Origin: Candidatus Bathyarchaeia archaeon
GTDB taxonomy: Archaea > Thermoproteota > Bathyarchaeia > 40CM-2-53-6
Length of the DNA stretch: 64,000 nt
Assembly (NCBI GenBank): GCA_049521055.1
Contig: JBEKPE010000001.1
Span: forward strand, 44,837 to 108,836
Direction of reading: 5' to 3'
Numbering within the stretch: the first letter of the stretch is position 1; each line of letters opens with the position of its first letter. The position numbers and the translations under genes are program-made. Under the pieces are notes generated by a model. That model ran no database searches. It worked only from the letters and a program-made list of their open reading frames with translations, and was not told the DNA's origin. This document shows positions 3,416-59,424 of this stretch, in pieces.

Positions 3416-4641
3416 GGGGCTTCAACTCGTTAGCTCGCTTCCATCGACTTTCAGGATTACCTACTAAGGATTCCTGTACCATCGCTTCAACTGGAAGCGC
3501 GATTGGCGCGAACCTCACGCCTCTTGCTAGGATATTCCTAGCAGCGTTTACGTCTCGGTCTACGGTGAATCCGCAGCTCGGGCACTTGAGTTGTCGGCTC
3601 TCTTCGGGTTTACGCGCCATGCGCGACCCACACATCGAACACTTCACCGAAGTGCCAGACGGATTCACGTAGATGACTGGGATGCCTTCCCACTGGGCCT
3701 TGTATTCGATCTGACGCTGCAATTCAAAGTAACTCCAACCGTTCATCACCCCACGATAACCTCTGCACTGCCAGTTACCGTGCCGGTAAAGTTTCCTTAT
3801 GCCTGTCAGCTTCTCCATGACGATGCCAAACTCCCTGCCCTTCGCATCCTCTACGATCTGTTTTGAGGCGTTGTGGAGAATCCGCTTCACCTTCTCTTGT
3901 TGCTTCCGACCGTACTTGCTGGTGATTTCGCGGAGGATGCGCACATCGTTCCGCCTGATGCGGGAGCGTACCAGTCGGTAGGTAGCCTTTACCCTTGTCG
4001 CCTCGGTTAGTTCATGCTTCGCGCTGGAACCGTCCGTGGACGCCAATGTGACATTGTTCAGGTTTCGGTCGATGCCGATAAAACCACTCGGTCGGACCTC
4101 CGCGACCTCCTTCGCATATGTCAACGACAACTTGTCCTGGGTCAACGTAACCGAACGAACCTTGTACTTTCGAATAGTTGCTTGAACATGCGGCGTAATA
4201 GGAATTCTGATCGATTCCCCAGGATGGTACGGCAGAAGAAGACAGCCGTCCTTAATCTTGAATCCATAGCAGGTGGTCAAACGCAAACGTCGAACATGAG
4301 GAGCTGTCGGATTCTCTCCATGTCGAACCGTTCTGCGATAATTCCGGAGTATTCCAGTTACGCCGCTGATGGCGCATAGCTTGTAGTAGCTCATAGCGTC
4401 GTAGGTTGCAAGTTGTTTGTACGCTTTCACGGACAAGGACTTGAGGCTCGTGGCGTTCTCAGTCAAGCCAATCTGTATGCAAGTGTTCATCATTCGGCGG
4501 AACTCGTCAAGCATCAGTAGAATCTCGGGGCTGGGCGTGTAGTGCTGCTGAACTGCTTTGATCGCCCGCATAACTTAGCGTCCGCTTTCAATCTCTTTTA
4601 GGCATGAGAGGTCGGTGAAACCAATGAGCCGACAAGTTAAC
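3398..4641 (-). mobile_element. IS200/IS605-family TnpB-only element, copy 2 (1244 bp) with about 20-bp terminal inverted repeats
   Basis: GTTAACTTGTTGGCTCAT at 3398-3415 is the reverse complement of ATGAGCCGACAAGTTAAC at 4624-4641. Confidence 0.75.
3399..4571 (-). CDS. tnpB: TnpB/OrfB family protein (390 aa)
   Basis: GIDRNLNN, IVMEKLTGI, CSMCG...CPSCG zinc finger and DRDVNAARNI. About 78% aa identity to copy 3. Confidence 0.9.
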   Translation of the reverse strand: MRAIKAVQQHYTPSPEILLMLDEFRRMMNTCIQIGLTENATSLKSLSVKAYKQLATYDAMSYYKLCAISGVTGILRNYRRTVRHGENPTAPHVRRLRLTTCYGFKIKDGCLLLPYHPGESIRIPITPHVQATIRKYKVRSVTLTQDKLSLTYAKEVAEVRPSGFIGIDRNLNNVTLASTDGSSAKHELTEATRVKATYRLVRSRIRRNDVRILREITSKYGRKQQEKVKRILHNASKQIVEDAKGREFGIVMEKLTGIRKLYRHGNWQCRGYRGVMNGWSYFELQRQIEYKAQWEGIPVIYVNPSGTSVKCSMCGSRMARKPEESRQLKCPSCGFTVDRDVNAARNILARGVRFAPIALPVEAMVQESLVGNPESRWKRANELKPHEPTS

Positions 4642-4768: not shown

Positions 4769-6118
4769 CTATCGAAGCTGAGCTGCTACTTCCTTTACGG
4801 CGCCTTCGAAGATTTCCAGTCCTTCATCGATGATGTCGCGGGTTATGATGAGGGGGGGTGCGAAGCGCATCGAGGATTTTCCGGCAGTTATGATTGCTAA
4901 TCCTCGTTTGAAGCATTTGTTGGTTATGTCCTCCACTTCCTGAGCGGCTGGTTCCTTGGTTTCCGGGTCTTTGACGAATTCCACTCCGACCATCAACCCT
5001 TTGCCGCGCACGTCGCCTATTATGGGGTATTGCTGTTGCATTTCTTTCAGTCGCTTCATTAGGTACGTCCCTTGATGGGTCGCGTTCTCCATGAGCTTTT
5101 CATCCTTTATGATGCCAATCACTTGTAATGCGGCGGCGCAGGCTACAGGATTACCCCCAAACGTATTGGCATGAGAACCCCCTTCCCAATCCATGAGTTC
5201 CTGTTTAGCTACGGCGGCGCCGATTGGGAGGCCGGATGCAAGAGCCTTGGCGGTGGTTAGAATGTCAGGCGTTACGCCCCAGTGCTCTAAAGCGAACCAT
5301 CTACCGGTCCGCCCCATCCCAGATTGTATCTCGTCGTCAGCCAGTAGAATGTCATATTTGTCAAGTATTTTCTTCAAACGCTGGAAATAATCGTCGGGAG
5401 GAACCACGTAGCCGCTCTCGCCTTGAATTGGCTCCACAAACATTGCAGCAGTGTCTTCAGGAGGATGATATTTCTTGAGTACCTCTTCTTCTATGAAGTC
5501 GACGCACCACATGTCGCACTCCGGATACTTCAGCCCGAAGGGACAGCGGTAGCAGTAGGGATAAGGAACGTGGGTTACTTCTGGAACGAGCGGGAAAAAG
5601 TGTCTTCTCTGAACCGGCTTACTCGCAGTAAGCGCCATAGTTCCGAAACTTCTTCCATGAAACGCGCCGGTGTACGCTAAGAATAACGGTTTGCGAGTGT
5701 GCCAACGGGCCATCTTCATCGCGGCCTCGTTTGCCTCCGCACCGCTATTACAGAAGAACACTTTCTTAGGAAATGAACCAGGCGTAATCTTAGTCAGTTG
5801 CTCCCCTAGGTCAACGATTGGCTTATAGTAGAAATCGGTCCATGAATAGTGAATTAGTTTCTCAGCTTGATCCTTGATCGCTTTGACGACGCGCGGATGC
5901 GAATGCCCCACGGCCAAAACGACTAATCCCGAATTAAAATCTATGAACTCGTTACCGTCAACATCCTTAACGACGCATCCTGAACCAGAGTCTGCAACGA
6001 GAGGATACCAACGTACAACCGATTGCGACAAGATGGTCGCATCTTTCTGAAGCAATTCTCTCGCCTTAGGCCCGGGCGGAGTGACGACGATCTTATGTCG
6101 TTGAACTTTGGTCACCAT
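4769..6118 (-). CDS. class III PLP-dependent aminotransferase (GabT/ArgD-like)
   Basis: Aminotransferase class III architecture throughout (about 450 aa) with conserved-looking PLP-lysine region. Confidence 0.8.
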   Translation of the reverse strand: MVTKVQRHKIVVTPPGPKARELLQKDATILSQSVVRWYPLVADSGSGCVVKDVDGNEFIDFNSGLVVLAVGHSHPRVVKAIKDQAEKLIHYSWTDFYYKPIVDLGEQLTKITPGSFPKKVFFCNSGAEANEAAMKMARWHTRKPLFLAYTGAFHGRSFGTMALTASKPVQRRHFFPLVPEVTHVPYPYCYRCPFGLKYPECDMWCVDFIEEEVLKKYHPPEDTAAMFVEPIQGESGYVVPPDDYFQRLKKILDKYDILLADDEIQSGMGRTGRWFALEHWGVTPDILTTAKALASGLPIGAAVAKQELMDWEGGSHANTFGGNPVACAAALQVIGIIKDEKLMENATHQGTYLMKRLKEMQQQYPIIGDVRGKGLMVGVEFVKDPETKEPAAQEVEDITNKCFKRGLAIITAGKSSMRFAPPLIITRDIIDEGLEIFEGAVKEVAAQLR

Positions 6119-6256: not shown

Positions 6257-8113
6257 TCAGTTTATGATTAGAGGCACGATCCTTTGGCTGTCAACGTCAA
6301 AGAGCCCTTTGTCTGTAATTCTTGCGTGTGATATTACTGGAAGTGCGAGCGTGGAGATTATCAGTATGGTTCCGTAATCGACGAGTCCGAGTTGCTCCTC
6401 CACCTTTCTGAATGCCAACAGTTTACCTGCGACGGTCTCAGCCTTTTCTTCCGACATGAGGCCTGCTACCGGCAGTTCAACTTCAGCCAAAACTTTTCCT
6501 CCGTTCACTGCAACCAGCCCACCTTGGCACTCGATTAGAGTGTTCGCTGCCACCGCCATATCTGACGGGGTATTCCCCACAACAGTAAGGTTGTGTGAAT
6601 CATGTGAAATTGTTGTAGCCAAGGCGCCTTCTTTCAGGCCGAATCTATCCAGGAAGCCAAGCGACTTGTTTCTAGTCTTTCCGTGCCTTTCAAAAACGGC
6701 AACCGTTGCGCCATCGTGCTGCACAATATGGTCCTTGACAGTCACATCTTTTTCTTCAAAGTTGGTTAGGAAGCCCTGCATGGTTATCGTTCGGACTCTG
6801 ATTGATCCACTCTCTTTTTCGACCCGCACCTGGAAATCATCCGGCGTCACTCTCTGAAGTTTCACTGTGCGTGTTGCTTCTTTCGGGAAATGGGTTGTTG
6901 CAAGTTTTGTTACGAGCGTGCCATTCTCCGCTACGATTCTCCCGTTCGCGACAACCAACTTCACCTTGAACTCATTCAAGTCTTTGACTAGTAGAATGTC
7001 AGCGATTTTTCCTGGGCTTATGGCGCCGCGGTCGAATAGGCGAAGGTGTTTGGCTGGGAAGAGGGTTGCTGAGCGAACTGCATCTATTGGATCGAACCCG
7101 TTCTGTATCGCTTTGCGCACAACGTCGTCCAAATGTCCATCTCGCATGAGATCGTCTGGCATTGTGTCGTCGGTAACAAGCAGCAGGCCTTGCTTGCTGG
7201 GAAGATTGGACAGCAACTTGACTAATCCGGGAACGAGGGAGAATTTCCTTAGTTTCGCGAACATTCCTAGGCGGATTTCGCGGAGGATTATATCAAAATC
7301 AGCTTTGTAACCATGGTCTGCATCTACGGGAAAGTATTCGTGGTTTGCTTCAATTCCTGAGGCTGCGTAAGCGTTTGTTCCCTTTTCATCTAGATTCATG
7401 CAGTGACCATCGATAACGACTCCTGCCTCTCTGCCAGCCTTGACTATCTCAGTCATTCGTTTGTCGAGGTTGATCACACCACTGTAATCCATTACTTCAG
7501 CGAGGCCGATAACCCTCTCCCAACCAAGCATCTCTCTAACATCTGACACTTGGATTTCAGCCCCAGCCGTGTCCGCATTCAATACCGCGGGTACGCAGGT
7601 AGGAACGAGAACAAGGACCTTCAAAGGCAGACCTGCGCTGGAATCAAGCATCATCCTTACCCCAGCCTTCCCCAACACGTTCCCAATCTCATGCGGATCA
7701 ATGGCTACAGTAGTTGTCCCATGCGGGAGAACGGCTTCAGCAAATCGCGGTGGGGTAACCATACTGCTCTCAATGTGGAGATGCGAATCGATCAGGCCTT
7801 GAATGGCATACATTCCTTTCGCATCGAAAACATCCTTCGACTTAATTTCCTCTAGCTCCCCAACATAGGAGATTTTGTCACCACAAATCCCTATACTCGT
7901 CTCGTATTGCTCGCGCGTGTAAACGTTCACGAGCCGCACGTTTCTTAACACGAGATCGAACGGGGCGTCTCCGCGTGCAGTCTGAACCAGCCTTTCATAT
8001 GTCATTATTGTAATCATCCCGAATCTGGCGCAACCTAGATTTGGCTTCTGTGGACCGATCCCGGTGATGGCGCAGGTGGGTTCTAGTACCTCTTCGTTGT
8101 GCATTACTTTCAT
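6257..8113 (-). CDS. ade: adenine deaminase
   Basis: Amidohydrolase with the DSHLHIESSMVTP...HGTT...DPHEIGNVLG signature typical of adenine deaminase. Confidence 0.8.
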   Translation of the reverse strand: MKVMHNEEVLEPTCAITGIGPQKPNLGCARFGMITIMTYERLVQTARGDAPFDLVLRNVRLVNVYTREQYETSIGICGDKISYVGELEEIKSKDVFDAKGMYAIQGLIDSHLHIESSMVTPPRFAEAVLPHGTTTVAIDPHEIGNVLGKAGVRMMLDSSAGLPLKVLVLVPTCVPAVLNADTAGAEIQVSDVREMLGWERVIGLAEVMDYSGVINLDKRMTEIVKAGREAGVVIDGHCMNLDEKGTNAYAASGIEANHEYFPVDADHGYKADFDIILREIRLGMFAKLRKFSLVPGLVKLLSNLPSKQGLLLVTDDTMPDDLMRDGHLDDVVRKAIQNGFDPIDAVRSATLFPAKHLRLFDRGAISPGKIADILLVKDLNEFKVKLVVANGRIVAENGTLVTKLATTHFPKEATRTVKLQRVTPDDFQVRVEKESGSIRVRTITMQGFLTNFEEKDVTVKDHIVQHDGATVAVFERHGKTRNKSLGFLDRFGLKEGALATTISHDSHNLTVVGNTPSDMAVAANTLIECQGGLVAVNGGKVLAEVELPVAGLMSEEKAETVAGKLLAFRKVEEQLGLVDYGTILIISTLALPVISHARITDKGLFDVDSQRIVPLIIN

Positions 8114-43083: not shown

Positions 43084-44109
43084 TTGCAGGAACAGCCGAT
43101 CGGGTGGAGCAATGGGATACTTGTGAATACCGGCTCGTCCCGCCTGCTTTTCGATCCGACCCTGGGTAGGCGTTTAGGTGAGGATTGGAACGTTTTCATC
43201 ACTCACGCTCATTCAGACCATACCTATGGCTTTGGAACTTCCGCGAGAAAACATTCCACTCCAGAGACCCTGCGTATCTACGAATCACTTTCAAAGCGTA
43301 CAGTCAAGAACGATCAGACCATAAGGATCGGGGAGAAAATGCGATTTGATGACACTGAAATCAGGGTCCTCGATGCAGGCCACATGCTTGGTTCCTGCCA
43401 GTTTCAATTGATCACTCCTGAATTTACGGCATTGTATACGGGCGACATCAACTGTGTCGACACACTGACGACTAAGGCAGCCAAAGCTGAGCGCTGCGAT
43501 TTTCTAATTATAGAAGCGACGTATGGGCATCCGTCATACGTATTCCCCCAAAGAGACACCATATACGCCGACATCATACGATGGACAATGACGGAGATTA
43601 ATGATGGCAAGTTACCAACTTTCCAAGTTTACTCATCAGGAAAACCGCAAGACATCGTCCGCCTCTTCAACGTCTACACCAAAATCCCAGTCGTATGCGC
43701 GCCGGGCATAGCCGCGGCAAACCTTGTCCACAATGAAAACGGCGTTCAACTTGACTATCTAGATTCTTCGACCGATGAGGGAAAGCACGTGTTGAAATCG
43801 AGTGGATGCGTCTACGTTACGACCAGTCGTGGAAATCAAGTGCCGCAAAATGCTTCAAGAGCAGTTGCGACTGGTTGGGCTCTTCGAGAGGCTTTTCGCA
43901 GTTTCACTGCATTCCCCTTGAGTAGCCATGCGGACTATAATCAGCTCATGCAATTTATCGCGGCCGTCAACCCGAAAGCAGTATTCATCTTCACAGGATA
44001 CATAGATCTGTTATCGGCTCAGATAGAAAGAAAGCTAGGCATCAAAGCTGGGCCACTGCCTGTACTCGCGCAGACGAATTTAGCTGATTTTACTCGAAAG
44101 GCTACTTGA
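43084..44109 (+). CDS. metallo-beta-lactamase fold / beta-CASP-like nuclease
   Basis: HAHSDH metal motif, DAGHMLGS and IIEATYG. Confidence 0.7.
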   Translation: MQEQPIGWSNGILVNTGSSRLLFDPTLGRRLGEDWNVFITHAHSDHTYGFGTSARKHSTPETLRIYESLSKRTVKNDQTIRIGEKMRFDDTEIRVLDAGHMLGSCQFQLITPEFTALYTGDINCVDTLTTKAAKAERCDFLIIEATYGHPSYVFPQRDTIYADIIRWTMTEINDGKLPTFQVYSSGKPQDIVRLFNVYTKIPVVCAPGIAAANLVHNENGVQLDYLDSSTDEGKHVLKSSGCVYVTTSRGNQVPQNASRAVATGWALREAFRSFTAFPLSSHADYNQLMQFIAAVNPKAVFIFTGYIDLLSAQIERKLGIKAGPLPVLAQTNLADFTRKAT

Positions 44110-44281
44110 AAGTCAGATACATGAAGAGGCTTACGGCGACAAGGCCGATTGCTCCCATGACTACGACCTCGGGCCTTACCTTTACCCCCGGGGTTTCCTC
44201 CTCAAAGAACCGAAGTAAGCCAGCGCTGGCGGCGGGCATTGGTGATTCTCGTTTGCGCCTTTTCTCACGTGCGGTTGACAT
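44102..44281 (-). CDS. preprotein translocase subunit Sec61-beta/SecG (59 aa; below ORF-track cutoff)
   Basis: Hand translation gives MSTAREKRRKRESPMPAASAGLLRFFEEETPGVKVRPEVVVMGAIGLVAVSLFMYLTFK*. AGLLRFFEEE...PGVKV.P plus a single TM is the archaeal Sec61-beta signature. Confidence 0.55.
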   Translation of the reverse strand: MSTAREKRRKRESPMPAASAGLLRFFEEETPGVKVRPEVVVMGAIGLVAVSLFMYLTFK

Positions 44282-44525
44282 TGCTTACTAGATACCTACT
44301 TCCTGGTTTCGGACGGCATCCAATTAAACTTTCATTCTCATTGGGCCATGAAAGGGGGGTTTACCGGATTTCGATGTATTCGTGGGCGCTCTTGACGCTT
44401 TCGAAGCAGTAATGACCCAAGAAAGGCAAATACAAAAAACACCGCTGCGAGCAACCGTTATTCAATTCATCAATAGCGATAAGATTTTCTATCGATAACG
44501 GCAAGTTCGTCTAGAGTGTGATGAA

Positions 44526-45869
44526 ATGAGTTTTTACACTGAATTAAATATTTTGAGTAAGCTGGATCCTGAGCTTGCGGCTATTGTCAAAAAAGAAGTG
44601 GAGAGACAAGAAAACGGACTTGAAATGATCCCTTCAGAAAATTATGTTCATCCCGCACTTTTCGAGGCAATGGGATCAATTTTAACTAACAAATATTCAG
44701 AAGGTTATCCCGGCAAGAGATACTATGGTGGAAATGAGATTGTTGACATTATCGAGAGATTGGCTATAGAGAGAGCAAAGAGAGCTTTTGGTGTTGTCCA
44801 TGTGAATGTTCAACCATATTCAGGAAGCCCAGCCAATTTTGCAGTGTATGTTGCAATTTGCAAGATAGGTGATACTGTTATGGGATTGAATCTTCCAGAT
44901 GGTGGCCATCTAACACATGGATGGAAAGCAAGCGTAACTGGACAATTCTTTAACAGCATTCCTTATCATGTCAAACCAGACGGCTACATAGATTTAGATG
45001 AGGTGAGAAGACTAGCCAAAGAAAATAATCCAAAAATCATCTGGGTTGGGGCAACTGCTTACGTTCGAGAATTTCCATTCCAAGAACTTGGAGAAATTGC
45101 AGACGACGTTGGAAGTTATTTAGTTGCTGACATAGCACACATAGCAGGTTTGATTGTAGCAGGCGCTCACAAATCCCCCGTGCCATATGCGCACATCATA
45201 ACAACAACCACCCACAAAACTCTGAGAGGCCCCAGAGGAGCAATGATAATGGTTACAGAAAAAGGATTAAAAAAAGATCCTGAGCTCCCTGCTAAAATTG
45301 ACCGAGCCATTTTCCCAGGTCTTCAAGGTGGCCCTCATGATCATACAACAGCCGCAATAGCTGCTGCTTTAGGATTTGCCTTGAGACCAGAATTCAAAGA
45401 ATATGGGAAACAAATCGTGAAGAATGCAAAAGCATTAGCTCAATCTTTGATGGATAATAAAATAAAATTAGTTACCAATGGAACTGATAACCACATGGTT
45501 CTCATAGATTTAACCGCGTTTGGAAAAGGAAAAGGAATTTTTGTGCAAGAGGCGCTTGATGCTGCAGGTATAACTGTAAACAAAAACACAATACCAGGTG
45601 AACCATCTTCTCCGTTCTATCCGAGTGGAATAAGACTAGGAACTCCCGCACTAACATCAAGAGGGATGAAGGAAAATGAGATGGCGTTGATTGGCAGCTG
45701 GATGGCTAAAATAATTTTTGCAGTCAAAAATTACGAACTGCCTGAAGATAAAAACCAGAGAAATGCAGTATTGAAACAATTCAGAGAGGATACAAAACAG
45801 AATGATACAATCAAGAAGACGAGACAGAGTGTTATAGATCTCTGCAAAGAGTTTCCACTCTACAGATAA
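44526..45869 (+). CDS. glyA: serine hydroxymethyltransferase
   Basis: Full-length SHMT with PLP-lysine region TTTTHKTLRGPRG. The gene is markedly AT-rich relative to its neighbours. Confidence 0.9.
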   Translation: MSFYTELNILSKLDPELAAIVKKEVERQENGLEMIPSENYVHPALFEAMGSILTNKYSEGYPGKRYYGGNEIVDIIERLAIERAKRAFGVVHVNVQPYSGSPANFAVYVAICKIGDTVMGLNLPDGGHLTHGWKASVTGQFFNSIPYHVKPDGYIDLDEVRRLAKENNPKIIWVGATAYVREFPFQELGEIADDVGSYLVADIAHIAGLIVAGAHKSPVPYAHIITTTTHKTLRGPRGAMIMVTEKGLKKDPELPAKIDRAIFPGLQGGPHDHTTAAIAAALGFALRPEFKEYGKQIVKNAKALAQSLMDNKIKLVTNGTDNHMVLIDLTAFGKGKGIFVQEALDAAGITVNKNTIPGEPSSPFYPSGIRLGTPALTSRGMKENEMALIGSWMAKIIFAVKNYELPEDKNQRNAVLKQFREDTKQNDTIKKTRQSVIDLCKEFPLYR

Positions 45870-46155
45870 GATTTTGTAGTTGTCATGTTAGTTTCAGAGG
45901 TTATTCTTGATTTAATCAAAATAGATTTATTCGCATACCAGAATTGGGCTTTCTTTTTTTGGTCCATGGTTTGCTGGTGTGGTGGTGTCATCACTGGTGT
46001 GACCGTCGTAATCCGGACCGTAACAACCTTTCCAAGGTGGCAACTTTGAATGTGACAGGGCTTTCTTCAGTGACGTGACGCGCTTACCTTCAACAAAGGT
46101 CAACTCGCCGCCTGGCTTGCGGGGTCATGAAGTAGCATAGGTCTTGTACTGGGCG

Positions 46156-55432: not shown

Positions 55433-55649
55433 CCTGACTCCCCTCTAATTCAGATGCAGAGATCAGCCCCGAGTTATTTCAACGTTCCATCAAGTCTAAC
55501 ATCACATTCAAACCGGGAAATTCAAGCTCGAATTTGACCAATTACTTCCGAACGACATTGATGGAGTGCGAATTACGCTCCTTCGCTTGAGGGCTTGATG
55601 GGGTATGGATCGAATGGCGAATTATGGTTCGTAACCCGATCCTAGGAAA

Positions 55650-55735: not shown

Positions 55736-55800
55736 TGGCGCAAGCCCGGATTTGTCACCACTGCAAGCTCGTTCTGCAAGAATATTCTCAAAGAGTTTAA

Positions 55801-56301
55801 GTGAATACGAAAGCGTATCCACACGGGTGTCCCTTGGCAGAACAACCCGACACGTCAGATGCGCGTCACTCAATCCATGGCACCGTAAGCGATCCAGTCA
55901 CAAAGCTTCTCCTGGATAGCAGTCACCTAACCTTGCCACAACTGGAAACGCTACTCGCTGATTCCGTTTCACAAGAGAAAACCATGAAAAAAGGTTACAG
56001 GCGCCTTTTCAGGCCCTCAACGAAGAGGATTAGCCGCGGATCATATAATCGAAGCCTAATCCAAGCCCAAAATAACATTATTCGATCAATTTACACGATC
56101 TTGCTGTTAGGATATGTGGGGTTGTTCGATACTTCAGCGTTGCAACCCTTCATTGAACTCTCGGACACACTTCAGGGCTACATCCAAGAAAACCAGTCCT
56201 CCTCACCCGGCGACTTGGAAGCGATTCGAGACTTGAAGCGAAGACTCTCGGAGGCTATCTCCGCATTGGCCTACCGTCAAAGCTTCAAAGATACTCTATG
56301 A
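55801..56301 (+). CDS. hypothetical protein
   Basis: ORF only. The start is uncertain (an internal Met near 55984 is possible). Confidence 0.3.
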   Translation: MNTKAYPHGCPLAEQPDTSDARHSIHGTVSDPVTKLLLDSSHLTLPQLETLLADSVSQEKTMKKGYRRLFRPSTKRISRGSYNRSLIQAQNNIIRSIYTILLLGYVGLFDTSALQPFIELSDTLQGYIQENQSSSPGDLEAIRDLKRRLSEAISALAYRQSFKDTL

Positions 56302-56307
56302 CCGATC

Positions 56308-56516
56308 ATGTGATGTCACGTGACATGGCAAGAATACGCTGTGCGTTATTCAAACAGAGTGCGTATTTGACGAAATGAAAAGGGGAACAAATTAAGCGAA
56401 TTACCCCAGACGGCCAGAATATAGGCCGATTGTGTGATGTCACCGTGAGCTAGGTGGATGTCACGTCAGCGTCACGTTCAAATCATCGTGACATCATAAG
56501 GCGACTGTGACATCAC
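56308..56516. promoter_or_regulatory. array of five GTGATGTCAC/GTGACATCAC sites including perfect 14-bp palindrome ATGTCACGTGACAT
   Basis: Sites at 56313-56326, 56434-56443, 56455-56464, 56488-56497 and 56507-56516, immediately upstream of a wHTH gene. Confidence 0.55.
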
Positions 56517-56539
56517 AGGGTAGAAGAGGTTAAAGCACC

Positions 56540-57262
56540 TTGAATCTCCCCTTTCCCATGACCATGGACGCCTTTGCGTTAGCAGTCGATTTGGTTTCCC
56601 TGCTCTGCTTGGTATTGGTGGGCATCGTAGGGAGCAAGACGATCCACGCTTTTCAGCAAAGCAAACAAGCGGTAGTCGAATCCTCGTCGCTGATCAGCGT
56701 CATCGTGGACGCTCTTTCATCACGCATTCAACGCTCTGAATCGGTAATGATTCAGCTACGCTCAAGCATGGAGGCAACGACACAACGCAGCGACGCTCTA
56801 GCAGGAGAACAGGTGAACTTACGCACATCCCATCAGGAGACGTTGCGTCACCTGCAAGAGATCTTAGCTAACGACAAGAAGCTCGTCCTGGAATTCGAGC
56901 AATTAAAGTCAAAACTCAACACCATTCAACAAAGGAATCCAAGTATCGATGCCCTACCGAAACGTGAGAATTTGGCTGCCCTAGTCTCTGATGGAGACTT
57001 CTTAGCATCCCTCACGCCGACTGAACGTCTGACGCTGGAAATTTTAAGGGATGAAGGTGCGAAAGCGGCTCCAGAAATTGGAAAACGCCTGAACAAATCT
57101 AGAGAACACACGTCGCGATTGATGAAAAAGTTGTATATGGAAGGGTATGTCGACCGTGAATCGAACCATGCTCCGTTCAGATACAAATTGAACGAGGCGT
57201 TGCGTGCAACATTCGAAAGTCCCAATGACCAGGTCAGGGCGAAACCGTCGGAGACGTTTTGA
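56540..57262 (+). CDS. membrane-anchored coiled-coil protein with C-terminal winged-helix DNA-binding domain
   Basis: N-terminal TM (AFALAVDLVSLLCLVLVGIVG), a heptad-rich middle region, and a C-terminal LTPTERLTLEILRDEGAKAAPEIGKRLNKSREHTSRLMKKLYMEGYV wHTH. Confidence 0.55.
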   Translation: MNLPFPMTMDAFALAVDLVSLLCLVLVGIVGSKTIHAFQQSKQAVVESSSLISVIVDALSSRIQRSESVMIQLRSSMEATTQRSDALAGEQVNLRTSHQETLRHLQEILANDKKLVLEFEQLKSKLNTIQQRNPSIDALPKRENLAALVSDGDFLASLTPTERLTLEILRDEGAKAAPEIGKRLNKSREHTSRLMKKLYMEGYVDRESNHAPFRYKLNEALRATFESPNDQVRAKPSETF

Positions 57263-57632
57263 GTCGATAAAACCAGTGAGCAGCCGACCCTGTTCTCTCC
57301 AACATACCGCGGTCCGCAAGTCGCGATAAATACGTCGAAACGGCACCAAGGGTGAAGCCCTCCCCCCAGATTTCGCGGTAAGATTGGTAGATCTCGCGAG
57401 AATCGAAACTACGATCAGCTAACTGCGTGTTGATTACATCCGTCAACCGACTCATTTTGCTCTCCCCACCCTCAAGAGAAGAGACATGCTGATTGGGGCC
57501 GGCCACGATTTCCGCGTATTCTAACAATCGATTAACTTTCTCGACCGTAAAGTCCCCCTCAATGGCTAGGCTATGTTTTGCACCAGATCGATCGAAGAAC
57601 TCGAGCTTGATGCGTCTTTTCATGAGGAGCAC
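57234..57632 (-). CDS. hypothetical protein (possible wHTH), adjacent to oriC
   Basis: ORF only. Contains VSTYLSRLADRGMLER. Confidence 0.35.
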   Translation of the reverse strand: MLLMKRRIKLEFFDRSGAKHSLAIEGDFTVEKVNRLLEYAEIVAGPNQHVSSLEGGESKMSRLTDVINTQLADRSFDSREIYQSYREIWGEGFTLGAVSTYLSRLADRGMLERTGSAAHWFYRLKTSPTVSP

Positions 57633-58194
57633 GTTCCACTGGTCAACAAATTATAAGTTGATTGGCATTGTTGAGCACGCTGCTGATATAGTTTCACCGG
57701 AAAAATTAGGCGTGCAGTGGAAACAGAGGGGTTATTGGAACAGTCCACAGACGACAACACGTGAACTGCAACGAACCTATTCTGCCTAAGCGCCCCTAAC
57801 CCCTTGATTTCGACTGGACAAATACATTTGACCAAACACTGAATAGAACAAATTCAAGTTTTGCTGACTGATGAAAATTAGAGGCGTAGGTACAATCTCG
57901 TAAATGCTATCTCATTTATTGTCAAAAAGTAATAGTACAATGACTTCTTCTTAACAGCAGAAGAAAACACGAACCGACTTCACCATACTTGGAGTGGAAT
58001 CGAAGGGGTGAGGGGGTCCACAACGCATTTTCCAACATGGTTTACAACATTTTTCCAGAGTCTTATGTGATAACTGTGCATACCGGTTCCAGTGGCGATA
58101 GTTGATTTTCTTGTACAACAACCATTAGCTACTTTTCAAGATGTAAGACCGGTGTGACCAGTGGAGGTATGTTCCCTTACCAGCCGTAGACGTT
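57630..58194. other. replication origin oriC with ORB/mini-ORB elements and AT-rich unwinding region
   Basis: Plus-orientation CAGTGGAAACAGAGGGG at 57715-57731, GAGTGGAATCGAAGGGGTGAGGGGG at 57993-58017, TTCCAGTGGCGA at 58087-58098 and ACCAGTGGAGG at 58157-58167. Inverted GTTCCACTGGTC at 57632-57643. AT-rich stretch at 57840-57960. Lies directly upstream of cdc6. Confidence 0.7.
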
Positions 58195-59424
58195 ATGGAA
58201 ACCTTATTCGACAAATATTTGTCCACCGCCAAAATATTCGCAGAGCGTGACGTTTTACGGCACGACTACATGCCAACTCACTTACCGCACCGAGATGAGC
58301 ATATTCAGCGTTTGGCAGGGATTCTTGCTCCCGCGCTTCATCAATCGAAGATATCAAATGTATTCGTTTACGGGAAAACAGGTACAGGCAAGACCATAGT
58401 AACGAAATTTGTGCTCGACAAACTGCAGAAGAAGGCCACCGAGATCGGGGCCCCAGTAAAGATGGCTTACATCAATTGCCGTCTCGCGGGAACTAACTAC
58501 CGGGTGCTGGCGGAGATATGTAGAGCCGTCGGAGTGGAGGTACCTTTCACGGGAATTGCCGTCGGAGAGCTTTTGGATCGATTTTCAAATGGGATAAGTG
58601 CCGACAGGACTGCCCTACTTGTCACTCTGGACGAGATTGATGCTCTGATAAAGCATAACGCGGATGATTCCCTGCTGTATGAGCTCACGAGAATCAATGA
58701 AACGCTCAACTCTTCTTGGATTAGCCTCGTAGGGATCTCAAACGATCTTCATTTCAAGGAGTTCCTGGATCCACGCGTCCTAAGTTCGCTTAGCGAAGAG
58801 GAGGTTGTTTTTCGGCCCTATCTCGCAGATGAGCTCTTTGACATTCTATTCGACAGGACACGATTGGCTTTCCTCAAAGGGGCGCTCGACGAAAATGCTC
58901 TGAGACTGTGCGCTGCCTTGGCCGCCGGCGAGCATGGTGATGCAAGACGGGCACTCGATCTGCTTCGCGTCGCAGGGGAACTGGCGGAGCGCGAAGACTC
59001 GGGACGAGTGATCGAACAGCACGTGCGCCAAGCGCAGCAGAAGATCGAACACGATCGCGTGTCTGAGGTGTTGAAGTCGCTTCCTGCTCACTCCAAAATC
59101 CTGCTTGTCGGAGCGTACTTGTTGAGCAATCATCTCTCTAGCGGAGCCATAACTGGCGATGTGTACGAGGTGTACCACGAGCTATGCGGAGCCAGCGATT
59201 TGGAACCATTGACACAGCGTAGAGTTAGCGGCCTCATCAACGAGCTGGACGTCATGGGAATATTGAACGCCAGAGTCGTGAGTTTCGGAAGGTACGGGAG
59301 AACCAAGAAAATAAGACTCGGAGTATCTCCTCGAGTTATCGCAGATACCTACTTTGAGGACAATATTGCGGGCAGGCTCTTCGGATACGTCCCGAAATCT
59401 CTCCAGAAGCATCAGGCAGCCTAG
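58195..59424 (+). CDS. cdc6: Orc1/Cdc6 replication initiator
   Basis: AAA+ Walker A GKTGTGKT, Walker B LVTLDEID and C-terminal winged helix. Confidence 0.95.
   Translation: METLFDKYLSTAKIFAERDVLRHDYMPTHLPHRDEHIQRLAGILAPALHQSKISNVFVYGKTGTGKTIVTKFVLDKLQKKATEIGAPVKMAYINCRLAGTNYRVLAEICRAVGVEVPFTGIAVGELLDRFSNGISADRTALLVTLDEIDALIKHNADDSLLYELTRINETLNSSWISLVGISNDLHFKEFLDPRVLSSLSEEEVVFRPYLADELFDILFDRTRLAFLKGALDENALRLCAALAAGEHGDARRALDLLRVAGELAEREDSGRVIEQHVRQAQQKIEHDRVSEVLKSLPAHSKILLVGAYLLSNHLSSGAITGDVYEVYHELCGASDLEPLTQRRVSGLINELDVMGILNARVVSFGRYGRTKKIRLGVSPRVIADTYFEDNIAGRLFGYVPKSLQKHQAA

Follow-up and report, generated by a model that had tools for sequence, protein, structure and literature searches.

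The 64,000-nucleotide stretch of a Candidatus Bathyarchaeia archaeon analyzed here (contig JBEKPE010000001.1, positions 44,837 to 108,836; hereafter the window, which also provides the coordinates) contains a cluster of short palindromic sites at 56310–56516, directly upstream of a gene predicted to encode a membrane-anchored coiled-coil protein with a winged helix-turn-helix (wHTH) domain, hereafter the membrane protein. The genes are arranged in the order PolD-DP2 (minus strand), Elf1 (minus), up166 (plus), the membrane-protein gene (plus), dn132 (minus), repeats of the origin recognition box (ORB) type with an AT-rich stretch, cdc6 (plus), and Endo_dU (plus), where up166 and dn132 denote a conserved upstream gene and a convergent downstream gene, respectively. 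The ORB repeats, which we take to be such from the general consensus of archaeal origins, confirm oriC. The array lies beside oriC and the PolD cluster, where the initial annotation had located it, with its last site approximately 1.1–1.2 kb from the first ORB. The features are listed in Table 1.

The array was 207 bp long. The 10-mer GTGATGTCAC or its complement occurred in three exact copies in the window, at 56310, 56434, and 56507, against 0.13 expected, and none of 100 shuffled sequences attained three copies. For the 8-mer GATGTCAC, five of the six copies in the window were found at 56312–56514, with 1.78 expected across the window. The initial annotation had described five copies within 210 bp; this holds for the 8-mer, and for the 10-mer there are three exact copies and two variants, tGGATGTCAC at 56455 (8 of 10 positions) and GTGACATCAt at 56488 (9 of 10 positions). 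The perfect 14-bp palindrome also described there, ATGTCACGTGACAT, was found at 56313–56326 within site cluster A, and the terms operator-like and iteron-like are apt as a description of the array. The palindrome GTGAYRTCAC, generalized from relatives, matched the window three times, always within the array (0.16 expected), and the density of GTGA/TCAC half-sites was 49.8 per kb in 56300–56520 versus 7.0 per kb window-wide. Site cluster A starts 9 bp past the up166 stop codon, and its 18-bp flank is repeated at site B1 (CCGATyrTGTGATGTCAC). The B2 region contains two TCAC half-sites 11 bp apart, and B1–B4 together form an 83-bp dyad centered near 56475 with the orientations + + − −.

Table 1. 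Features of the locus; positions refer to the window except in the last row, where they are given as locus:position
Feature	Position	Strand	Remarks
up166	55834–56301	+	Conserved upstream gene, ~155 aa from TTG 55834; all-helical orphan family
Site cluster A	56310–56326	.	GTGATGTCAC at 56310–56319 abutting half-site GTGACAT at 56320–56326
Site B1	56434–56448	.	GTGATGTCAC at 56434–56443 plus half-site GTGA at 56445–56448; repeat family D6
Site B2	56455–56475	.	tGGATGTCAC at 56455–56464 plus extra half-site GCGTCAC at 56469–75
Site B3	56488–56497	.	GTGACATCAT, 9/10 match, inverted relative to B1 and B2
Site B4	56507–56516	.	GTGACATCAC, reverse complement of B1; inverted repeats I17, I23
GAAGAGGTTAAAGC block	56523–56536	+	Putative BRE/TATA of the membrane-protein gene, TTAAAG at 56530–56535
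Membrane-anchored coiled-coil wHTH gene	56564–57262	+	232 aa; alternative starts 56558, 56540
dn132	57234–57632	-	Convergent gene; N-terminal beta-rich domain and C-terminal wHTH
oriC	57634–58009	.	ORB-type repeats and AT-rich stretch ~57830–57960
Mini-ORB TTCCACTGG	57634–57642	-	At the extreme 5′ end of dn132
ORB TGCAGTGGAAACAGAGGGGT	57713–57732	+	
Inverted ORB copy	57797–57819	-	
ORB TGGAGTGGAATCGAAGGGGT	57990–58009	+	
orc1/cdc6	58195–59424	+	Pfam Cdc6_C 1.9e-25, Cdc6_lid 3.5e-25
Aminotransferase intragenic sites (related loci)	L015:4586, L034:4571, L037:4639, L042:2336, L049:4612, L057:4572, L061:4657, L078:4594, L050:829		

The unit of the sites was the half-site (R)TCAC. Everted and overlapping pairs of this half-site make the 10-bp palindrome (37 GTGA..TCAC cases with a 6-bp offset), and the spacings between half-sites of the same orientation peaked at 10–11, 19–21, and 41–43 bp. 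Because such repeats are about one helical turn apart, they lie on the same face of the DNA. TrmBL1/Tgr, a relative of TrmB, reads the Thermococcales glycolytic motif (TGM), TATCAC-N5-GTGATA (PMC4158304), and the reading of YRTCAC by a TrmB/MarR-like wHTH therefore has precedent. The arrangement of the half-sites, which is unlike that of TGM, implies loosely coupled domains and fits the disordered linker of about 20 residues in the membrane protein.

The membrane protein most likely starts at the ATG at 56558 or at 56564, as judged from the conservation of the region. The codon at the position of 56564 ([AT]TGGAY) was a conserved start in eight orthologous loci, and public gene calls gave 232–234 amino acid residues. 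The initial annotation had the coding region begin 24 bp past the array; the TTG at 56540, from which it is listed, was considered as a start codon preceded by a Shine-Dalgarno sequence and rejected because it is not conserved, whereas the 56564 start is. The GAAGAGGTTAAAGC block, located between the last site and the start, was kept in eight of the nine loci of alignment A1, which consists of the window and eight genome loci with 47–85% protein identity, and is probably the transcription factor B recognition element and TATA box (BRE/TATA). With the spacing usual in archaeal promoters, transcription from this putative element would start near 56558, giving an mRNA with little or no leader. 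In public gene calls, the open reading frame (ORF) often continues upstream through the array (P0029, P0042, P0059, P0089, P0106, and P0119), and these over-extended calls add spurious N-termini of the type 'MTS...DVT...', masking the anchor.

Residues 3–23 of the membrane protein were predicted to form an anchor with its N-terminus outside, with a 19-residue Kyte-Doolittle mean of 2.76 at residues 4–22, followed by K/R. A hydrophobic segment with a mean of 1.9–3.5 in the same measure, followed by K/R, was present in all 20 family members. In the AlphaFold2 (AF2) model, a continuous helix at residues 2–123 (predicted local distance difference test score, pLDDT, >90) is followed by a disordered linker at residues 125–143 and the wHTH at residues 145–218. 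The Pfam MarR family (PF01047) matched residues 158–209 of the 240-aa ORF with 29.6 bits against a gathering score of 24.6 (E = 6.3e-7), and the score for TrmB (PF01978), 16.4 bits, was below its cut-off of 25.6; TrmB matches are on record in Pfam for many distant family members, mostly marked weak. The architecture of transmembrane segment, coiled coil, and wHTH proposed in the initial annotation was thus corroborated by the Pfam match, the AF2 model, and the hydrophobicity of the 20 members. The top Foldseek matches in PDB were MarR-family structures with template-modeling scores of only 0.25–0.29 over the query, and the AF2 model lacks the canonical MarR architecture of about 140–150 residues with dimerization helices flanking the wHTH. 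The whole arrangement of anchor, stalk, and wHTH had no match among solved structures in PDB sequence-profile and Foldseek searches. The labels YabA and 'replication timing regulator' were rejected for this protein, being based only on sub-threshold coiled-coil matches.

A search at E ≤ 1e-3 found 415 cluster representatives (50% identity) of the membrane-protein family, and a profile of distant members collected more than 2000 proteins with a uniform architecture and lengths of 220–260 residues. The recognition helix of the wHTH, KSREHTSRLMKKL, was near-invariant across the family (KSREHT[AS]RLMKKL), with the R, E, H, R, and K of SREHTxRLMKKL invariant throughout, and the stalk was variable. 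The named relatives were all from Bathyarchaeia/Bathyarchaeota except for a few metagenome bins labeled as Acidobacteria-type (Acidiferrales, Acidoferrum, and Terriglobales), and these bins showed the same archaeal synteny.

The sites were compared across 738 kb in 98 related loci, of which those with a name all belong to Bathyarchaeia; 80 of the loci were obtained from a metagenome scan. Each locus was taken with a flank of ±6 kb, and the survey covers origin-proximal DNA. In alignment A1, the intergenic DNA could not be aligned save for the GTGA..TCAC blocks and the promoter block. Site A was invariant in this alignment, and the offsets of the sites from the start codon were fixed in the close loci at −254, −130, −76, and −57, of which −130 corresponds to B1 (seven of nine close loci), −76 to B3 (in the close clade), and −57 to B4. 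The spacing between the A and B clusters was 124 bp in six of the nine loci and 125–126 bp in two more. When three distant loci were added to the close ones, the density of sites with no more than one mismatch was 6.8 per kb over the 560 bp upstream and 0.094 per kb elsewhere. The motif was also found in very distant lineages including BA1 and BA2, at about 30% protein identity and 36–55% GC content. In 78 of 80 loci, a perfect GTGAYRTCAC was located between −15 and +25 relative to the stop codon of up166, and 66 of 90 had at least one perfect site ahead of the membrane-protein gene.

Perfect sites were then binned by position relative to the membrane-protein gene start, approximated from tblastn alignments, with a chance level of 0.0038 per kb. 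Between −500 and +250, 198 perfect sites were counted, with a peak of 4.2 per kb in the −250 to 0 bin. Beyond −750 upstream, 30 perfect sites occurred in 238 kb (0.126 per kb, about 33 times chance), and none was found in the 364 kb from +750 onward, which includes dn132, oriC, cdc6, and the DNA beyond. Among the upstream satellite sites, codons 169–172 of an aminotransferase gene read GTG-AYR-TCA-Cnn; this 10-mer was kept in 10 loci, one of them at 37% protein identity, and is followed by a further RTCAC half-site. The encoded residues vary (V-T/M-S-L/H/Q) while the 10-mer stays, a mark of selection on the DNA itself. Other satellite sites were located at the stop codon of a CN-hydrolase gene and at codon 94 of an NAD-synthase gene. 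The upstream satellite sites are not promoter elements. In the window, no satellite site was found within 6 kb.

The gene order of the window was unchanged in loci L001–L008. In distant lineages, the flanks differed, with TopoVI in place of PolD, or with HypF, NAD synthase, or HerA-NurA inserted, and the core of up166, the membrane-protein gene, dn132, a gap, and cdc6 was retained despite these changes. As the initial annotation had proposed to look for, the same architecture occurred next to cdc6 in other genomes: cdc6 was at most 4 kb away in every one of the 34 metagenome loci with sufficient flank, and in the earlier set it adjoined the membrane-protein gene in all 15 loci with flank extending that far. 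It was located 0.95–1.6 kb downstream of the membrane-protein gene in 21 loci, 3.7–4.0 kb downstream with HerA-NurA inserted in seven, and 3.2–3.6 kb upstream in six. Among loci of the lineage in which cdc6 lies upstream, 14 of 14 have a full ORB (TCCAGTGGAAAC.GAGGGGT) some 135 bp past the dn132 5′ end. Since the full ORB stays beside dn132 where cdc6 has moved, the module is tied to the ORB-bearing DNA and not to the cdc6 gene; its linkage to ORB elements was seen wherever a locus had sufficient flank. In one locus of the rearranged lineage (L026), a mini-ORB, TTCCAGTGGAAGCC, is located at 1499–1512 upstream of the relocated cdc6, with the full ORB remaining beside dn132; the origin elements appear divided between two positions separated by about 5.6 kb. 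In BA1/BA2-type lineages, a HerA (DUF87)-NurA-like pair is located between the membrane-protein gene and dn132 (L009:6731–9287, L012:5061–7593, L015:6699–9216, and 17 metagenome loci), so that a DNA translocase/nuclease pair is present inside the origin-flank module.

The membrane protein is, with moderate probability, the factor that binds the GTGAYRTCAC sites: its recognition helix is invariant, its fold is of the TrmB/MarR type, and the sites precede its own gene in most lineages. If it binds this DNA, the DNA is necessarily held at the membrane. As the best of the explanations considered, we propose, tentatively and as a possibility that falls somewhat short of probable, that the membrane-anchored protein pins the origin-flank DNA to the membrane through these sites, and that it also autoregulates where the array abuts its promoter. 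In the proposed mechanism, oligomers formed through the stalk would present several loosely tethered wHTH domains, which would occupy the GTGA/TCAC half-sites, both as 10-bp palindromes and as helical-turn repeats on one DNA face. Through occupancy of the sites, DNA lying 1.1–4.5 kb from the ORB elements would be kept at the inner membrane face, and this tethering would be the function under selection. The promoter-proximal sites of the window, at −57 to −130 and upstream of the putative BRE/TATA, would probably feed back, in one direction or the other, on transcription of the gene itself.

These results bear on the two functions suggested in the initial annotation. An envelope-stress regulator finds no support, because at most about 10 residues would be extracellular, which leaves no sensor domain, and because in four lineages the array persists away from the promoter of the gene. 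A DNA-membrane tether near oriC fits the comparative data better; this reading is favored by the ORB linkage, the one-sided distribution of the sites, and the intragenic sites conserved at the DNA level; the binder and the selected function are inferred. Overall, the observation itself was confirmed and considerably strengthened, and its earlier interpretation was partly supported.

Several points weigh against the tethering explanation. The half-site centers of the 10-bp palindrome are only about 6 bp apart, which is unusual for a wHTH dimer. The module contains a second wHTH protein, dn132, as an alternative candidate binder, and the best-conserved site follows the 3′ end of up166, not the membrane-protein gene. 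The distance from the array to the ORB elements varies from 1.1 to 4.5 kb, and the survey, covering about 0.74 Mb around the locus, leaves room for a regulon elsewhere in the genome. In addition, the haloarchaeal oapABC genes, which adjoin oriC, turned out to drive vesicle formation (PMC10927574), and conserved origin adjacency thus does not prove an origin function.

The same oapABC case, in which conserved origin-adjacent genes may have unrelated functions (PMC10927574), is consistent with plain local autoregulation by a membrane-anchored MarR-like factor, perhaps also acting on up166, in which the adjacency to oriC would be a historical accident and the anchoring a regulatory device, such as sequestration or release. 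Membrane-bound archaeal transcription factors are known (ArnR and ArnR1; PMC6396743), and archaeal factors are able to activate transcription from positions upstream of BRE/TATA (PMC4158304). Directly upstream of the putative BRE/TATA, the window and its close relatives have four sites at fixed distances, a geometry that makes autoregulation, as invoked in the initial annotation, likely in the window. It is common for MarR-family proteins to regulate their own genes through palindromes in the promoter region. As the whole explanation of the array, however, autoregulation is unlikely. In L010 and L019, where HypF lies between the genes, and in L072 and L096, the sites remain at the 3′ end of up166 across 2.5–3.4 kb of intervening genes and the membrane-protein promoter is siteless; the array survives without promoter adjacency, and autoregulation through it is therefore dispensable. 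Conserved sites within genes or at stop codons up to 3.7 kb upstream cannot be operators of this promoter. The ORB linkage withstood three types of rearrangement, the protein lacks a sensor domain, and the 738 kb showed no additional sites at other promoters. In L010, a run of GTGATGT GTGACGT GTGACGT GTGATGT at 5-bp spacing was observed inside HypF (4168–4195); it probably encodes CxxC zinc-finger repeats and has no relation to the array.

Alternatively, the sites may be bound by dn132, by up166 (possibly in cis), or by an unlinked factor, with the membrane protein binding other DNA. We consider this improbable, yet worth weighing, because site A is found at the up166 stop codon in nearly all loci and stays with up166 when the genes part, and every locus with enough flank contains dn132, whose wHTH is conserved. 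The up166 promoter contains a distinct conserved palindrome, ATACG-N4-CGTAT, which suggests that more than one pair of factor and site exists here. Against a role of these proteins, up166 has no DNA-binding domain detectable with Pfam, NCBIfam, or PDB and only a low-confidence model, and no GTGAYRTCAC was found near the dn132 promoter or anywhere on the oriC/cdc6 side. The recognition helix of the membrane protein is, moreover, as invariant as the motif, and its wHTH is TrmB/MarR-like, the type of domain with which a TrmB relative reads TATCAC (PMC4158304).

Formation of nucleic-acid secondary structure, as an RNA hairpin in a read-through transcript or as a cruciform, is very improbable as the role of the array. 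The pairs B1:B4 and B2:B3 nest with a minimum free energy of −46.1 kcal/mol (z = −2.15), and RNAalifold gave five pairs with changes on both sides. However, every site is itself palindromic, so that any two sites can pair and only the central YR columns are informative; 30 of 34 informative YR cells paired, about 75% being expected if the sites were independent. Direct TCAC repeats and isolated single 10-mers, which are unable to form hairpins, occur in distant loci, and the window had no Rfam match. The predicted B1:B4/B2:B3 hairpin was therefore rejected, being explained by the palindromic sites and not general. An origin of the array by chance, or as what is left of a mobile element or of an iteron-bearing plasmid origin, as short repeats close to a replication gene might suggest, is practically discounted by the shuffle tests, the conservation of the sites in 98 loci, the lack of any relative of the membrane protein in 2.9 million viral contigs, and the core chromosomal nature of the neighbors PolD, Elf1, and Cdc6.

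The tethering explanation has parallels in Firmicutes. RacA consists of a wHTH, a disordered linker, and a coiled coil and is anchored through DivIVA (PMC4914108), and RicO and RocS contain a helix-turn-helix (HTH), a coiled coil, and a membrane-binding amphipathic helix, with RicO binding nine ricS sites around oriC (bioRxiv 10.64898/2026.03.06.710092). Like these proteins, the membrane protein combines a small DNA-binding domain with a flexible linker, a coiled coil, and attachment to the membrane or pole, and the sites are likewise short, palindrome-like, concentrated near oriC, and in some cases intragenic (PMC4914108; bioRxiv 10.64898/2026.03.06.710092). On the other hand, the order of its parts (anchor, stalk, and wHTH) is reversed relative to the N-terminal HTH of the bacterial proteins, a true transmembrane helix is predicted in place of an amphipathic helix or DivIVA contact, and the wHTH is MarR/TrmB-like and not MerR-like. 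The sites form a dense cluster within 0.2–4 kb on one side of the origin, whereas the bacterial systems have 9–25 sites over 600–700 kb; the host is an archaeon, and the evidence here consists of origin-proximal sites and a predicted anchor. No RacA chain was among the matches in a profile search of all PDB chain sequences. The membrane protein would be a working analogue, not a homologue, of RacA, RocS, and RicO, the closest known systems of this kind.

The module also resembles ParB-parS (and archaeal SegB) in having origin-near palindromes next to the gene of the candidate binder, in the stability of motif and protein over deep phylogeny, and in the proposed joining of autoregulation to a structural role. 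No Pfam match to a ParB N-terminal/CTPase domain or to a ParA/SegA partner was found in the membrane protein or its neighbors, and membrane attachment is, in contrast to ParB, built into the candidate binder. With MarR/TrmB regulators it shares a half-site, YRTCAC, resembling that of TGM (PMC4158304), a wHTH above the Pfam MarR gathering threshold, and sites upstream of the putative BRE/TATA of the candidate binder's gene. It differs from them in lacking the MarR dimerization helices and the TrmB effector domain, in place of which it has an N-terminal anchor and a stalk of about 100 residues, and its half-sites (GTGAYR/YRTCAC) are everted and overlap in a shared central YR, unlike those of TrmBL1/Tgr. 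ArnR and ArnR1 of Sulfolobus and bacterial ToxR and CadC similarly tether a DNA-binding domain by their own transmembrane segment(s) and act on specific promoter boxes (PMC6396743). In ArnR, the HTH is N-terminal and is combined with a HAMP/sensor domain and two transmembrane helices at the C-terminus (PMC6396743), and ToxR and CadC have periplasmic sensor domains, whereas in the membrane protein only helix, linker, and wHTH follow the anchor. In iteron-Rep origins, a Rep protein with tandem winged helices acts on repeats that form the origin; here the protein has a single wHTH, a canonical ORB/Cdc6 origin is located 1.1 kb away, and searches gave neither a Rep-like domain in the membrane protein nor relatives on viral contigs.

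To our knowledge, how origins are positioned or segregated in archaea without ParABS or SegAB is largely unknown, and for origin-membrane attachment we know of recent bacterial examples, RacA, RocS, and RicO, and of no archaeal one. No paper describing the present module was found in the literature. In its broadest form, which we regard as possible but more doubtful than not, the proposal is that the stalked transmembrane wHTH protein and its one-sided, centromere-like GTGAYRTCAC cluster constitute the first archaeal origin-membrane anchor, a kinetochore-like tether and class-wide module of Bathyarchaeia that positions or segregates the origin, was invented independently of RacA/RocS/RicO and ParABS, and possibly involves up166, dn132, and Orc1/Cdc6 through the ORB at the dn132 promoter. 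If true, this would be the first origin-membrane anchor in Archaea. The locus provides a testable candidate, with a defined 10-bp site, a 232-aa protein whose soluble portion is accessible to recombinant production, and a three-gene module conserved throughout an archaeal class that is abundant and for the most part uncultured. Should the tethering explanation fail, a deeply conserved pair of cis-element and protein and two uncharacterized companion families mark the replication origin of Bathyarchaeia, which is useful for finding origins in metagenome-assembled genomes and for annotating about 2000 proteins labeled 'MarR family' or 'hypothetical'.

As for the companion genes, up166 had no match in Pfam, NCBIfam, PHROG, or PDB, and no DNA-binding domain was detected in its product, whose AF2 model was of low confidence (pLDDT 52). 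A sigma-70-r4/Tfx-like HTH was considered for up166 and rejected, having no support in these four databases. The wHTH of dn132 gave weak Penicillinase_R-type matches in 7 of 14 members (E ≤ 0.1; best E = 6e-5) and was conserved (STVSTYLSRL); profile-profile comparison gave no homology between it and the wHTH of the membrane protein. The 5′ end of dn132 abuts the ORB elements, and the mini-ORB at this end (region 57634–57652), together with the full ORB kept about 135 bp off in the lineage with cdc6 upstream (variant loci L025–L095), suggests possible control of dn132 transcription by Orc1/Cdc6. With their 3′ ends overlapping by 29 bp at 57234–57262, dn132 and the membrane-protein gene are convergent; in the distant loci L010, L013, L014, and L016 they likewise overlap or are separated by no more than a few bases. 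Transcriptional interference or antisense coupling is possible.

Just upstream of the up166 start, the TTTAAGTGAATACGAAAGCGTATCCAC block at 55797–55822 contains a TATA-like box and the palindrome ATACG-N4-CGTAT. This block was near-invariant in eight loci, with two variable positions and a further change in one locus, and is probably a separate operator for a different factor. The CGAGTTATTTCAACGTTCC block at 55470–55488 (CG.GTTATTTCAA invariant) was kept in all eight aligned loci about 40–55 bp upstream of the minus-strand Elf1 start and is likely the Elf1 promoter. In the spacer between Elf1 and up166, one close relative only (L006, ~4940–5190; alignment A5 columns 150–350) has an insertion of about 250 bp with internal inverted repeats, GGGGTGGAGCCACCCC..., which looks like a miniature inverted-repeat transposable element.

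Elsewhere in the window, sites with one mismatch at 6328, 12780, 16646, 18746, 19739, 45985, and 46070 were rejected as further targets, since they were not above chance and did not cluster at promoters. Scans of the window for Rfam families at gathering thresholds and for tRNAs gave no matches. The GC content was 0.40–0.44 at 44000–46000, around a 447-aa ORF at 44526–45869, versus about 0.50 elsewhere, and this low-GC segment could be horizontally acquired.

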